Program-made: the position numbers and the translations under genes
Shown here: in pieces, positions 2,090-9,162 of the stretch
Layout: the number at the start of each line of letters is the position of its first letter
Position numbering within the stretch: position 1 is the stretch's first letter
Notes under the pieces: generated by a model
Databases searched by the model: none
What the model was told of the DNA's origin: nothing
The model's input: the letters and a program-made list of their open reading frames with translations, nothing else
Origin: Escherichia coli
GTDB taxonomy: Bacteria; Pseudomonadota; Gammaproteobacteria; Enterobacterales; Enterobacteriaceae
Length of the DNA stretch: 64,000 nucleotides
Reading direction: 5' to 3' (one strand)
Assembly: GCF_002854065.1 (NCBI RefSeq)
Contig: NZ_CP024147.1

Positions 2090-3340
2090 ATGGAAAGTAA
2101 AGTAGTTGTTCCGGCACAAGGCAAGAAGATCACCCTGCAAAACGGCAAACTCAACGTTCCTGAAAATCCGATTATCCCTTACATTGAAGGTGATGGAATC
2201 GGTGTAGATGTAACCCCAGCCATGCTGAAAGTGGTCGACGCTGCAGTCGAGAAAGCCTATAAAGGTGAGCGTAAAATCTCCTGGATGGAAATTTACACCG
2301 GTGAAAAATCCACACAGGTTTATGGTCAGGACGTCTGGTTGCCTGCTGAAACTCTTGATCTGATTCGTGAATATCGCGTTGCTATTAAAGGCCCGCTGAC
2401 CACTCCGGTTGGTGGCGGTATTCGTTCTCTCAACGTTGCCCTGCGCCAGGAACTGGATCTCTACATCTGCCTGCGTCCGGTACGTTACTATCAGGGCACT
2501 CCAAGCCCGGTTAAACACCCTGAACTGACCGATATGGTTATCTTCCGTGAAAACTCGGAAGACATTTATGCGGGTATCGAATGGAAAGCTGACTCTGCCG
2601 ACGCCGAGAAAGTGATTAAATTCCTGCGTGAAGAGATGGGCGTGAAGAAAATTCGCTTCCCGGAACATTGCGGTATCGGTATTAAGCCGTGTTCTGAAGA
2701 AGGCACCAAACGTCTGGTTCGTGCAGCGATCGAATACGCAATTGCTAACGATCGTGACTCTGTGACCCTGGTGCACAAAGGCAACATCATGAAGTTCACC
2801 GAAGGCGCGTTTAAAGACTGGGGCTACCAGCTGGCGCGTGAAGAATTTGGCGGTGAACTGATCGACGGCGGCCCGTGGCTGAAAGTTAAAAACCCGAATA
2901 CCGGCAAAGAGATCGTCATTAAAGACGTGATTGCTGATGCATTCCTGCAACAGATCCTGCTGCGTCCGGCTGAATATGATGTTATCGCCTGTATGAACCT
3001 GAACGGTGACTACATTTCTGACGCCCTGGCAGCGCAGGTTGGCGGTATCGGTATCGCCCCTGGTGCAAACATCGGTGACGAATGCGCCCTGTTTGAAGCC
3101 ACCCACGGTACTGCGCCGAAATATGCCGGTCAGGACAAAGTAAACCCAGGCTCTATTATACTCTCTGCTGAGATGATGTTACGCCACATGGGTTGGACCG
3201 AAGCCGCAGACCTGATTGTTAAAGGTATGGAAGGCGCAATCAATGCGAAGACCGTAACCTATGACTTCGAACGTTTGATGGAAGGCGCTAAACTGCTGAA
3301 ATGTTCAGAGTTTGGTGATGCGATCATCAAGAATATGTAA
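2090..3340 (+). CDS. icd: isocitrate dehydrogenase (NADP)
   Basis: 416-aa ORF with E. coli Icd sequence ([38 protein letters not shown]...); stop TAA at 3338-3340. Confidence 0.97.
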
Positions 3341-3363
3341 TCACTACATGTGTTAAATATTTA

Positions 3364-3395
3364 AACGGGCGTATAACACGCCCGTTGTTTTATTT
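3364..3395 (+). terminator. icd rho-independent terminator (8-bp stem AACGGGCG/CGCCCGTT followed by GTTTTATTT)
   Basis: Hairpin plus T-rich tract 24 bp after the icd stop. Confidence 0.6.
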
Positions 3396-3442
3396 ATGTA
3401 GATATTATTAATAGCATATCGAGCATATTTATATAAAACCCA

Positions 3443-3766
3443 TTACTTGAGCCCATACGGGCATATTTTTATAATACAACTCTTATGCAAACATTTATTT
3501 GTTATTTCGCTTTCTCCTGGAGGACACTCTTGACTGCTTTTGAGTAAACTCCATAAATTCTTGTTGAATGGTGCAATGTTATAAATAGTAATAGGATATT
3601 CTTTATCCTTAAGGATAATACCAGGCTTAACAGGTGTAAATATACTTCCAGGAGGAAGAAATATAGTAGATTGATACCAGATGATCATTTTCATATCACC
3701 CCATATGGCTGAAAAAGATATGCCGCATGTAGGTTGAATTACCGTGTCAATTACTACCCACTTCAT
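3443..3766 (-). CDS. iraM: anti-adaptor protein IraM (RpoS stabiliser)
   Basis: 107-aa ORF in an AT-rich segment immediately after icd; size and position match IraM (ycgW) as recalled for K-12. Confidence 0.75.
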
Positions 3767-4203
3767 TTGTTATGTCTTATCCCACGGTATTTAATATAGT
3801 TCATTTGGATGTTCATTTCTTTATTTTGCATATGAGTATATTACCCCTTCAAAAAATAAATTAATTAAAACGATTGCTTATATAAAACAAAACTTAAAGC
3901 AAGGAATCTCAATGGATGTTAAACAAAATGAGATTTAGTGAAAACAATAAATTATTCACTTCGTTTTAGATTTGTTTAGCTATAATGTTATACATTCAAA
4001 TGACTGAACATCCTGTAATTAAAACATAGCCTTTATGCTACTTTGTGCCAATTTGCTAAACATTATGGTTGCCTTTTTATATAACGATAATAATGAATAT
4101 AAGCATGACATGAGAATAAGGTTTCAATTTTTGAGTTATATAGGAAAGGTTTAACCTGTTCCTGGCTAAAATACATATAACTGGATGATGACTAAACCAA
4201 AAC

Positions 4204-4255
4204 ACATGTGCGTTAAGTATTGAAACGGGCGTATGGCACGCCCGTTGGTTTTATA
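4204..4255 (+). repeat. second copy of the icd-terminator-like element (ACATGTG...AACGGGCG-loop-CGCCCGTT-GGTTTTAT)
   Basis: About 50 bp closely similar to 3347-3395, including the same 8-bp stem; direct repeat flanking the iraM segment. Confidence 0.5.
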
Positions 4256-4461
4256 AATATATTAACCGTTATAAAATAACGTATAGAAAGTCAAGTGATC
4301 ACATTTCAAATATCAATTTGATAGTATTGGCCTGGTGATTATTTATGGGTAGCAATAAAAGGACAGTATTTATCATCCATAGGGATAGTCTCTGTACTTT
4401 TATTCCCATTATGCTAATGCCTTACTGAATTATGAAGCATTTCTTAAGCATCCAACTTAAG

Positions 4462-4866
4462 CTAGATTAATGGTTTATTATTTTCTACATCTTCAATATA
4501 TAAAAGCGTATTATCAATGGCGTAGTAACTGCGTTTGTTATGATTAACATCAGTAACCCAACGGAAAACGCCCGCGTCTGCCAGTGTTGAACAGTATTCC
4601 CGAAATGTAGATTTTCCGCAAATATGAAGCAATGCGGCCTCTTTTATTTTAGCAGGGTTCTTGGTCGTACTAACTTTTAACAGGTTCCTGGTTCCTCTTA
4701 ATAACAAAACCGTGTCATCGTGAGTAATAATTCTGATGTTATCCGTAGCCAGATAATAAATGTAATGTGCAATACGGTGATGTTTTAATTCTGAATAAAA
4801 CCAGGAGAAGTTTTGCTCTTTTCTCACTTGCTCAAACATCTTTTGAAAAACAACGACCTGATCCAT
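4462..4866 (-). CDS. ycgX: uncharacterised protein YcgX
   Basis: 134-aa ORF at the expected position between iraM and bluR. Confidence 0.7.
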   Translation of the reverse strand: MDQVVVFQKMFEQVRKEQNFSWFYSELKHHRIAHYIYYLATDNIRIITHDDTVLLLRGTRNLLKVSTTKNPAKIKEAALLHICGKSTFREYCSTLADAGVFRWVTDVNHNKRSYYAIDNTLLYIEDVENNKPLI

Positions 4867-5086: not shown

Positions 5087-5818
5087 TTAGGGGGCATGAA
5101 AGATGACTTTATAACCTTGCTCACCCCAGTGTTGTAAAAGTTCATTTTGCCTTCTCGTTGGTGCCATGCCTGTCCAGACAATCAATGTTTGCGTCGGGAA
5201 CAGTTCCGGGCGCGGTGATTCAATGGGATCAGCAAGAACAGAAATATGCCATCCTGACAATGATAAACGCCATGCTTCCAGCCACAATCGAGCTCTCTCT
5301 TCAACATTCCACGCCATCAGAATGGCTTCTTTACCGGGCTTACGGCGCATTTCGAAAAGCGAGGCTGCTGCGTATTCAATTAGTGCGCCGTCAAACATAC
5401 TGCTCATAATGCGGGAGGTGTTGTGATCAAGCACGAGACGCTGGCGAACAGGAAGGTAAACATGATTAATCAATTGATCTACTGGGTACTCTCGACCCAG
5501 TGAAATAATTCTCGCGCGTAGTTTGGCAGGATTAGCCATACGAAGAATTGACATCATCTCTTCTTGCAGGCGGCTCCAGTCATCTTCCGTATCCTGGCTG
5601 GTGGTTTCCAGTAATGCTTTAACTTTGCCTACAGGGACGCCATTACTTATCCAACGCTTGATCTCTTCGATACGTTGTATGTCTTCTTCATCAAAGAGTC
5701 GGTGTCCGCCTTCACTGCGCTGTGGTTTTAACAAACCGTAGCGGCGTTGCCAGGCCCGGAGAGTGACAGGATTAATCCCGCAACGTTCAGCAACATCACC
5801 AATGCTGTAATAAGCCAC
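5087..5818 (-). CDS. bluR: MerR-family transcriptional repressor BluR (YcgE)
   Basis: 243-aa ORF with N-terminal MerR HTH ([32 protein letters not shown]); divergent from ycgZ operon. Confidence 0.9.
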
Positions 5819-6022: not shown

Positions 6023-7234
6023 TTATTTTTTCTCCGGCCACGCAACTGAAGGGATACCATTCAATTTAGCTTTAGCAAACAGATCCCCCTGAAACATCTC
6101 AATTCCTGCGGATTCAAGCCACATCCACTCTTCTGGTGTTGCCACGCCCATAGCACTGACTTGAATTTCAAGTGATGTACAGCATTTTATGATCGCCTGA
6201 ATAATTGCCTGCCGTGGTCCGCTTTTATGAACATTGGTAATCAATTCCTGACTGATTTTAATTCTGTCAGGCTGGAAGCGTGACAGGAGTAACAAACCAG
6301 CAAAACCTGCGCCAAAATGATCAATTGCTACACTGATACCGGCAGCCTTTAGCGATTTAACCGCTTCGGCAAACTCATCAAACCGAGATATGACTTCACT
6401 TTCAGTAAATTCAACGATGATTTGTTCAGGCACCAGACCATTGGCCTTTATTTCATCAAGTAAAAAAGAGACTGCGTCAGGCTCGTTAACCAGGGTCATA
6501 GGTAATAGATTGATAGATATCATTTTATCACCGAGCTCAAGTGCGTGTGCCATCGCGAATACAAGCGCCTTACTTTTGAGATCCGCTGTGTAGATTTCCC
6601 CGTCTTTACGCTGCCCAACCGCTATAGCTGACGGGCTGTCTTCATTTTTTTGCACAATGGCTTCAAAAGCGATTATCCGCCGCGATAAGGGATCAACAAT
6701 AGGATGAAAGGCAAAGTGGTCGTTTATATTTGGTGAAAGGGTACAGGAATCAAGTTCTTTATCAGATCTGTCAGCGATAAAAAGCCAGGAGTCTTCAGCA
6801 GGGATCTCGAAATAGGTTGATTGTTCGGTTGCAAGGACAAAAGTACGAAAAAATTGTAGCGCTCTGTCATCATAAGTTAGCTGAAATTTTGATGTGCCTT
6901 TGTCGAATACGGCCTGTAAAACGTCATCTCGCTCGTGCAGGCGTAAATCAAATAATTCCATTCCTGCTTTACCAAAACGGCGAGCAGGCGCGTAATCGCA
7001 CAACAGTTCAACAATATTATAGTGCCGAGGATCCTGGCATATAGCCCGATATATCATTTGAACCTGTTCTTCCGGACCTTCCAGAAGCTGGAAAAAATGA
7101 GAACCATTAAACAGTAAGATCCCTGTTACGTCAGACTGCATGTTCCTGCGATTTGCTATCGAAACCATTTCTTCGATTTTTTTGACAGGTTCGTCGTCAC
7201 GTATATGGCTACGATAAATAAGGGTGGTAAGCAT
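6023..7234 (-). CDS. bluF: blue-light sensing BLUF-EAL protein BluF (YcgF)
   Basis: Conserved N-terminus MLTTLIYRSHIRDDEPVKKIEEMVSIANRRN starts at ATG 7232-7234 (403 aa); ORF track extends 26 codons upstream. Confidence 0.9.
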   Translation of the reverse strand: MLTTLIYRSHIRDDEPVKKIEEMVSIANRRNMQSDVTGILLFNGSHFFQLLEGPEEQVQMIYRAICQDPRHYNIVELLCDYAPARRFGKAGMELFDLRLHERDDVLQAVFDKGTSKFQLTYDDRALQFFRTFVLATEQSTYFEIPAEDSWLFIADRSDKELDSCTLSPNINDHFAFHPIVDPLSRRIIAFEAIVQKNEDSPSAIAVGQRKDGEIYTADLKSKALVFAMAHALELGDKMISINLLPMTLVNEPDAVSFLLDEIKANGLVPEQIIVEFTESEVISRFDEFAEAVKSLKAAGISVAIDHFGAGFAGLLLLSRFQPDRIKISQELITNVHKSGPRQAIIQAIIKCCTSLEIQVSAMGVATPEEWMWLESAGIEMFQGDLFAKAKLNGIPSVAWPEKK

Positions 7235-7547
7235 TAACTGTCCAGGGTAATGGGAGAGGCGAGAGTAAGACGGTAACAGACATATCTTCCGGTGTCTTTC
7301 TTTTAATACCAAAACATAACTGTTTCTTTACATTGATAAAAAATGGAAAAAGTTGAACACGAGTTGGCGAAAAATCTTGTATAGGTTGTCAGTTAAATGA
7401 TGCAATATGTTTTATCATAACGTATTGTTTTATATGCATTAGCACTAATTGCAAAAAATTAATTTATCATTCTGTACACATATTTCGTACAAGTTTGCTA
7501 TTGTTACCTCACTTAACATTGATTAACATTTTTAACAGAGGCGTAGC

Positions 7548-7784: not shown

Positions 7785-7813
7785 TGCAACAGCCTGATTA
7801 TTTGGATTTGCCC

Positions 7814-8719
7814 CTATATTTCCAGACATCTGTTATCACTTAACCCATTACAAGCCCGCTGCCGCAGATATTCCCGTGGCGAGCGATAACCCAGCGCACT
7901 ATGCGGATGCCATTCGTTATAATGCTCGAACGCCTCTGCAAGGTTCTTTGCTGCCGTTAACCCGTCTGGTTTGGGCATGATACTGATGTAGTCACGCTTT
8001 ATCGTTTTCACGAAGCTCTCTGCTATTCCGTTACTCTCCGGACTCCGCACCGCCGTGTTCTTCGGTTCAAGTCCCAACATCCGGGCGAACTGGCGTGTTT
8101 CATTAGCCCGGTAGCATGAACCATTATCCGTCAGCCACTCCACTGGAGACGACGGAAGATCGTTGCCGAAGCGGCGTTCCACCGCTCCCAGCATGACGTC
8201 CTGTACTGTTTCACTGTTGAAGCCGCCGGTAGTGACCGCCCAGTGCAGTGCCTCACGATCACAGCAGTCCAGCGCGAACGTGACACGCAGTCTCTCTCCG
8301 TTATCACAGCAGAACTCGAACCCGTCAGAGCACCATCGCTGATTGCTTTCTTTCACGGCCACTCTGCCTGTATGTGCCCGTTTCGATGGCGGTACAGCAG
8401 GTTTTCGCTCAAGCAACAGCGCATTCTAGCGCATGATCCGGTAAACACGTTTGGCATTGATCGCAGGCATACCATCAAGTTCTGCCTGTCTGCGAAGCAG
8501 CGCCCATACCCGACGATAACCATACGTGGGCAGCTCTCCGATAACATGGTGTATACGGAGAAGCACATCCGTATCATCAGTGTGACGACTGCGGCGGCCA
8601 TCCATCCAGTCATCGGTTCGTCTGAGAATGACGTGCAACTGCGCACGCGACACCCGGAGACAACGGCTGACTAAGCTTACTCCCCATCCCCGGGCAATAA
8701 GGGCGCGTGCGCTATCCAC
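7814..8719 (-). pseudogene. insD: IS2 transposase InsD (orfB) interrupted by in-frame amber codon
   Basis: Two ORF-track pieces (8426..8719 and 7814..8416) lie in the same frame, separated by TAG at 8426-8428 where intact IS2 InsD reads ...[13 protein letters not shown] (Q codon); remainder matches InsD. Confidence 0.8.
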
Positions 8720-9042
8720 TTTTTTGCCCGTCCATATTCAACGGCTTCTTTGAGGAGTTCATTTTCCATCGTTTTCTTGCCGAGCAGGCGCTGGAGTTCT
8801 TTAATCTGCTTCATGGCGGCAGCAAGTTCAGAGGCAGGAACAACCTGTTCTCCGGCGGCGACAGCAGTAAGACTTCCTTCCTGGTATTGCTTACGCCAGA
8901 GAAATAACTGGCTGGCTGCTACACCATGTTGCCGGGCAACGAGGGAGACCGTCATCCCCGGTTCAAAGCTCTGCTGAACAATTGCGATCTTTTCCTGTGT
9001 GGTACGCCGTCTGCGTTTCTCCGGCCCTAAGACATCAATCAT
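8677..9042 (-). CDS. insC: IS2 protein InsC (orfA)
   Basis: 121-aa product [52 protein letters not shown]... from ATG 9040-9042. Confidence 0.9.
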
Positions 9043-9162
9043 CTGTTCTCCAATGACTAGTCTAAAAACTAGTATTAAGACTATCACTTATTTAAGTGAT
9101 ATTGGTTGTCTGGAGATTCAGGGGGCCAGTCTATTATTTAACAGGTTAGCTATGAAGTCGTT

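Follow-up and report, generated by a model that had tools for sequence, protein, structure and literature searches.

Among the elements described at icd, the isocitrate dehydrogenase gene and a well-known integration hotspot of Escherichia coli, is e14 of K-12, with its attL and attR at icd and an icd/icdC pseudogene arrangement (Hill et al. 1989, as summarised in PMC6379469). This element supplies an icd end together with a terminator, while the old end and terminator are left at its far side. The anti-adaptor gene iraM has been described as lying on e14, and iraL, which offers a comparison for an IraM-like moron, as lying on the potB island of CFT073 (PMC4045071). A second system is phage 21, whose record is annotated with an ICDH-like pseudogene, a terminator, arm-type sites and then int; the phage carries sitA beside its att region, and a phage 21-like layout is also found in the O157 prophage at icd and in E. 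albertii. According to published accounts, the crossover of icd-integrating elements lies at the start of the phage-borne icd homology, about 160 nt before the icd stop codon. In addition, some iraM-less E. coli carry a sitABCD-bearing island at icd (sitA ... icdC-T-ymgL-ycgX, with T for the terminator), in which a decayed icd insert leaves a displaced icd pseudogene and terminator abutting ymgL-ycgX, a layout that resembles the iraM locus described here. We take this island to be PAI-CFT073-icdA of extraintestinal pathogenic strains.

We analysed a stretch of 64,000 nucleotides of E. coli DNA (hereafter the window), the icd region of which is laid out in Table 1. Two copies of a terminator-containing repeat, T1 and T2, flank iraM in the window as well as in K-12, where the order is icd-e14-icdC-T1-iraM-T2-ycgX and the icdC pseudogene precedes T1-iraM. 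In K-12, iraM lies beyond the right end of e14, contrary to its published placement on the element (PMC4045071). The e14 genes that stand between icd and icdC (ymfD/E, lit, intE, pin and mcrA) were not found in the window, where the order is icd-T1-iraM, and no prophage genes appear between icd and bluR in the ORF list. An earlier note, made from the letters of the window, had reported that e14 is missing here, that icd is followed by iraM, ycgX and bluR, and that K-12 carries e14 at this point, all of which proved correct.

Table 1. Features of the icd-bluF region, in window positions.
Feature	Position	Strand	Basis or remark
icd (isocitrate dehydrogenase)	2090-3340	+	Intact, 416 aa; ORF list and icd annotation in matching genomes
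icd 3' end plus terminator module (replacement end of icd-integrating phages)	3180-3393	+	26 phage records
T1, repeat copy 1, the working icd terminator	3346-3395	+	Hairpin 3364-3386 and T-run
AT-rich iraM segment	3396-4203	n/a	25-35% GC; with one repeat copy, missing as a unit in 1,128 E. coli genomes
iraM (anti-adaptor IraM, 107 aa)	3443-3766	-	Annotation in matching genomes; phrog_4407, E=1e-50
ymgK, small ORF, 14 aa	4019-4063	-	Identical to the annotated ymgK of K-12; within the iraM upstream region
T2, repeat copy 2, probable relic of an older icd 3' end and terminator	4204-4256	+	Hairpin 4224-4246; left edge between ACAT and GTG
ymgL, small ORF, 36 aa	4299-4409	-	PF23691, E=7e-24; annotated in related genomes
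ycgX (DUF1398)	4462-4866	-	Member of a lambdoid-phage moron family
bluR	5087-5818	-	No prophage genes between icd and bluR
bluF	6023-7312	-	Beyond bluR in the window

Several other features of the surroundings were recorded. The rluE-icd interval of the window holds a two-gene module on the minus strand (719-1503). One product, of 149 aa, is assigned to the STM2901 family in the annotation of CUWW06, a nearly identical strain, and the other is a DUF1493 protein of 116 aa. In K-12, O157 and the other genomes examined, rluE directly adjoins icd. An IS2-type (IS3 family) insertion is located at ~7800-9130, just after ycgZ in the ycgZ-ymgA-ariR region, and the closest matching genomes have an IS2 transposase annotated at this site. 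Besides, 41 nt at 16519-16559 are 93% identical to positions 13498-13538 of the locus L038, downstream of trkG, and may represent a small dispersed repeat.

A repeat finder recovered 3349-3391 and 4209-4251 as a direct repeat of 43 nt, ungapped and 86% identical, with a spacing of 860 bp. When gaps are allowed, the repeat covers ~51 nt (~3346-3395 and 4204-4256), with 46 of 56 columns matching and three small gaps, and its local alignment score of 34 compares with 12.8 +/- 1.4 (maximum 16) for shuffled sequence. Neither upstream of ACATGT nor downstream of GTTTTAT was any similarity between the copies detected above that of shuffles, and no icd coding remnants above shuffles were found upstream of T2 in the window. 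GC content between T1 and T2 is 25-35%, versus ~50% in icd. Both copies match the plus-strand terminator consensus and also fold, with a GC-rich stem-loop followed by a T-run. The 23-nt hairpin AACGGGCGTAT..CACGCCCGTT occurs in the 64-kb window at the T1 and T2 sites only, none being expected by chance. The earlier note had described these same traits, namely an icd-terminator sequence of ~50 bp that recurs, an AT-rich iraM segment of ~0.86 kb bracketed by direct repeats, and a second copy with a plus-strand terminator shape between minus-strand genes; the shuffled alignments, the base composition together with the 860-bp spacing, and the consensus scan, respectively, bear them out. T1 is the working terminator of icd. 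Its minus-strand fold lies just past the iraM stop codon, from which we infer that T1 may terminate iraM as well.

To place the hairpin in a wider context, a degenerate pattern of it was run against one genome per species (~100,000 species). Seven loci matched, five of them directly after icd (in E. albertii, three Citrobacter and one E. coli-like contig) and two unrelated; the E. coli representative, E. fergusonii and E. marmotae were not among the seven, and hence the scan gives no direct outgroup for the downstream flank. The T1 hairpin is identical to those at the icd 3' ends of E. albertii and Citrobacter. Judged by this distribution, the hairpin sequence is the conserved icd terminator and not a generic one.

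The same module is carried by phages. Phage 21-type phages match the window at 3180-3393 with 92-99% identity, covering the last ~160 nt of icd and the terminator, and 26 phage records match positions 1/3-214 of a query comprising window 3180-3420. Their homology sets in at window ~3180, ~160 nt short of the icd stop, and breaks off at 3393, the right edge of the T1/T2 repeat. The repeat unit thus derives from the icd 3' end and terminator, and its right edge falls at the end of the phage/host homology, as in an att duplication. Since these phages bring an icd end and a terminator of their own, integration installs a new gene end and terminator and moves the former ones aside. Between strains (L001, L002, L003, L011 and L031), the ~185 nt that precede the hairpin (window 3179-3363) differ by 3-13%, compared with no more than 1.6% among typical strains over the first 1,060 nt of icd; the divergent 3' end fits repeated overwriting by phage-borne copies.

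Phage 21-type phages share with T1 and T2 the terminator sequence and the base at which homology ends, and they are lambdoid, as are the carriers of iraM and ycgX homologs. Their arm, with its TCTTCCCCAAAA repeats, differs from the right flank of T1 in the window apart from a few bases, and no iraM was found in the phage 21-type phages of the collection searched. The e14 element is more distant. Of its repeat, ~165 nt are coding sequence of icd, whereas the T1/T2 repeat lacks a coding part and has no integrase nearby; its terminator copy has a different stem (AACGGGAGCG...CGCTCCCGTT), and the arm of the e14 family is different, too. In comparisons of the right flanks of T1 and T2 with the e14 arm, 21-65 of 500 shuffles reached the score overall, the T2 flank being marginal (21-39 of 500) and the T1 flank not significant, and this likeness was given no weight as evidence. 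E. coli O157 strain Al Ain carries at icd a DLP12-like lambdoid prophage that has a phage 21-type arm, with int, xis, emrE, ybcK, rusA, Q, lysis genes, bor and ybcV, and no match to ymgL-ycgX was found anywhere in this genome.

We surveyed the locus in 5,426 complete E. coli genomes. The two-copy form with iraM, matched over the whole 1.4-kb stretch, is present in 3,844 of them, K-12 and a strain 99.9% identical to the window included, and the repeat is therefore no assembly artefact, a possibility that the earlier note had left to be checked. A form exactly 860 bp shorter, with neither iraM nor a second copy, accounts for 1,128 genomes (~21%); the presence of iraM thus correlates with that of the repeat, a point that the earlier note had asked to check. 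The shorter form reads icd or an icd pseudogene, one terminator, ymgL and ycgX. Its single terminator is a hybrid in position, with the icd side as left flank and the T2 side as right flank: the sequence after it equals the right flank of T2, and the ycgX flank follows directly. In six iraM-less genomes that were sampled, the terminator is of the native type, the left parts are mosaic and the right flank does not vary. Remodelling of the locus by IS1 was seen in E. coli O25:H16 F5505-C1 (L014) and CUWW06 (L043): in one of the two, IS1 lies between T1 and iraM, and in the other iraM is truncated by IS1, with a deletion running from there to pdeG that includes T2 and ycgX-bluF.

A divergent form of the locus, represented by L036 and L038, occurs in 19 of the 5,426 complete genomes and in several draft assemblies. 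Between icd and an orthologous T2 it has ~6.5 kb of DNA: a terminator whose arm is of the e14 type, a gene for a protein of 455 aa, a fragment of a transposase gene, trkG, a homolog of iraM and an extra ymgB-like gene. This T2 agrees with that of the window in its right flank and in the derived TTAAG. Before it stands ATCAAGAATATGT, which equals the last 13 nt of icd, is in register with the icd reading frame and is spaced 24 nt from the hairpin (25 nt in the native arrangement). A BLAST alignment of window 3326-3391 with the divergent T2 gives 82% identity over 66 nt with E about 1e-12. Recognisable icd before the L036 T2 amounts to ~13-16 nt only, and an unconstrained alignment of the upstream DNA with 300 nt of icd returned the 13-mer only, a score reached by 78 of 500 shuffles; the case for a putative icd tail is carried by its position, its register and the 66-nt alignment, not by the score of the 13-mer. 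In the alignment of the window with L036, a gap of ~230 nt is flanked by matching sequence on either side, and its joint is an ACAT microhomology. Because the divergent genomes keep the last 13 nt of icd before T2, and because of this gapped alignment at ACAT, the left edge of the T1/T2 repeat, 5 nt after the icd stop, is best read as the joint of a later ~230-nt deletion and not as a recombination core.

Both forms have a junction at the left edge of the iraM segment (~3398), which lies after T1 in the window and after a different hairpin in the L036 type. This terminator-like hairpin, GAGCCCCTCTACGAAGGGGCAGTTTTT, precedes the iraM-like gene in L038 13380-14100 (E. coli 2017-02-2CC) and is the same in L036; a stretch of 91 nt in the DNA just left of its junction in L038 is 71% identical to a lambdoid late region of E. 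albertii, a match that is weak and not collinear.

The genes of the segment and its neighbourhood point to phages. Over its whole length, the iraM coding sequence is 71% identical at the nucleotide level to that of Stx2-converting phages, and the IraM homologs of lambdoid prophages, Stx2 prophages included, lie on the opposite strand between Q/stx and nanS-holin in all cases found. IraM was assigned to phrog_4407, YcgX to phrog_413 and TrkG to phrog_1916. A Pfam scan of the window IraM gave no match at E<=0.01; the protein is 92-95% identical to proteins named IraM, which carry a precomputed PF11183 assignment (IraM/PmrD-like anti-adaptor family). Proteins of this family were found in Escherichia only. 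Phage paralogs of YcgX lie between Rz and cos in lambdoid prophages, and in one Citrobacter ycgX adjoins icd without iraM and without T2. YcgX homologs of 70-77% identity in Escherichia sp. E10V10 and E. albertii were considered as orthologs at the icd locus and rejected, being paralogs located elsewhere or in prophages.

With its phage-family genes, foreign base composition, known integration site and variable presence, the iraM segment has the marks of a prophage remnant. It resembles the morons of lambdoid phages in protein family, AT-richness, variable presence and an orientation opposite to that of the surrounding genes. It differs from them in lying outside any prophage, with flanks that match no phage in the collection; its noncoding parts likewise found no match in the phage collection, nor in the Stx or E. 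albertii prophage loci.

Taken together, we consider it probable that T2 is the fossil of an earlier icd 3' end and terminator, displaced by an element that carried its own icd end, and that the iraM unit was later lost in an iraM-less clade. For the order of these events, the delivering element and the mode of deletion we infer the following. A crossover ~160 nt before the icd stop would have made the incoming icd end and terminator the working end of the gene (T1) and pushed the original end and terminator to the far side of the insert, so that T2 would be the older, host copy. At least one such integration would have taken place in the ancestor of most E. coli, the insert being phage-type DNA with iraM, which would then have decayed to ~0.8 kb, giving icd-T1-[iraM]-T2-ymgL-ycgX. 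In the window lineage, the further deletion of ~230 nt would have removed the icd coding tail before T2, after which the repeat starts 5 nt past the stop. The two copies of ~50 nt would finally make the unit deletable, and recombination of T1 with T2, homologous or slipped, would yield the iraM-less form. The far-side placement of the displaced end is the same as in e14 of K-12, and the sitABCD island shows a comparable decay, but the island retains its icd pseudogene at the full length of 168 nt, along with cargo of many kb, whereas the presumed iraM remnant comprises 0.8 kb and would have lost its coding tail.

The earlier note had suggested an att-like footprint of a past integration or excision at the icd hotspot, and this suggestion holds in part. 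The origin from the icd 3' flank stands, and a past integration is what we favour; the repeat itself, however, is not the att core, as the phage homology starts ~160 nt before the icd stop. Instead of starting at the icd crossover core with an icd pseudogene at the far end, the repeat begins 5 nt after the stop, with nothing similar upstream. Neither an integrase ORF nor arm-type sites were found beside the left repeat in the window. Because integrase, arm sites and a recognisable icd pseudogene beside T2 are all missing from the window, an att-type origin is suggested by the comparison with other genomes. Also weighing against the displacement reading are the ~3398 junction common to both locus forms and the noncoding parts of the segment, which have no counterpart in the phage collection. 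Excision as the source of the arrangement was not upheld: the iraM-less form is most simply explained by homologous or slipped deletion between the copies, which implies no excision activity.

The direction of the change deserves closer attention, as the single-terminator form might instead be ancestral. The iraM elements would then have integrated independently, or once with subsequent spread by recombination, and nothing would have been deleted in the 21% of genomes without iraM. We regard this as a real possibility, though clearly the less probable one. All six sampled iraM-less genomes have native-type terminators without the changes seen in T2 (TTAAG, a GC insertion and a GG loop), as this polarity would predict; yet a T1 x T2 crossover to the right of TTAAG would likewise leave a native-looking terminator. 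The Citrobacter with adjacent icd and ycgX but neither iraM nor T2, and the restriction of the IraM-family proteins found to Escherichia, are also in its favour, as is the observation that over the first 215 nt after the terminator K-12 is nearer to an iraM-less strain than to the window. Against it stand the flanks. Over ycgX-bluR-bluF, the iraM-less genomes form a tight cluster (<=0.9%) that is 2.1-2.4% from the window, the main iraM-bearing type, and ~5% from the iraM-bearing L036 type, which falls outside; this comparison covers six iraM-less and a few iraM-bearing genomes, and recombination is frequent and may confound polarity. Moreover, the derived TTAAG is present in T2 of both iraM-bearing types, and the iraM segment and the DNA on its right side have diverged together: in the comparison of the window with the L036 type, identity is 81% in the iraM coding sequence, ~72% in the noncoding parts of the segment, 70% in the T2-ycgX intergenic region and 89% in ycgX. 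The flank distances and this co-divergence favour a single, old insertion and a recombination between T1 and T2 that later removed the unit from one clade. The iraM-less form is therefore most likely a secondary loss of this kind, the six sampled genomes belonging to one flank clade.

It may be asked whether T2 has been kept as a working terminator or insulator, which would either keep plus-strand read-through or antisense transcripts of the iraM region from entering ymgL-ycgX, or end the transcripts of ycgX-ymgL. The perfect 9-bp stem and partial T-run of T2 in the window, its folding on both strands and its retention in 3,844 genomes would agree with such a role. In K-12, however, mismatches interrupt the T2 stem, which no longer folds as a terminator. 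The T-run of T2 is weakened (GGTTTTATAA), its two neighbouring genes are on the opposite strand, and one variant (L035) lacks T2 altogether. A maintained function of T2 is unlikely because its stem is lost in K-12 and T2 is missing in that variant, and we hold this explanation of the second copy to be correspondingly improbable.

Two further explanations treat the segment as mobile in its present form. The terminator copies might serve as portable homology for swapping small cargo between icd phages and the chromosome, the iraM unit being picked up and dropped by icd prophages. We think this very unlikely; if true, iraM, which stabilises RpoS, would be a phage-exchangeable cassette and not a dead relic. 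Alternatively, the iraM segment might be a small cassette moved by site-specific recombination within the terminator, with the ~50-nt repeats as true att sites. The forms with and without the unit indeed differ precisely by one repeat period (860 bp), and the segment has the repeat at either edge, but the ORF list contains no recombinase in or near the segment, and the homology of icd phages starts at the published crossover place, ~160 nt upstream of the stop. In addition, the orthologous T2 of the divergent form appears to include the end of the icd reading frame, the left edge in the window would be a deletion joint, and the segment was found beside a terminator copy in no phage or other locus, so that we assign this cassette a very small probability. 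Finally, half of the repeat is a GC-rich hairpin of a common kind, and the earlier note had allowed that the likeness might be that of a generic terminator, but a chance resemblance of two unrelated terminators can practically be dismissed, given a match that far exceeds shuffles and reaches past the hairpin on both sides, a hairpin unique to T1 and T2 in the window and nearly exclusive to icd across ~100,000 genomes, and the exact hybrid junction of the iraM-less genomes.

The preferred reading, displacement of an older icd end by an incoming element, makes the feature an ordinary layered integration scar at a well-known hotspot, and its novelty is modest: it adds a further example of a known process, corrects the place of iraM relative to e14 and provides a count for an exact presence/absence polymorphism. 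It may be of use in annotating the icd region and in interpreting strain differences in RpoS control, and it invokes no new mechanism. As to iraM, which regulates RpoS, the sigma factor of the general stress response, it suggests a history as a phage-type leftover at the icd hotspot. More generally, repeated integrations at icd would leave stacked terminator copies, which record layers of past events and at the same time form repeats that are prone to deletion.
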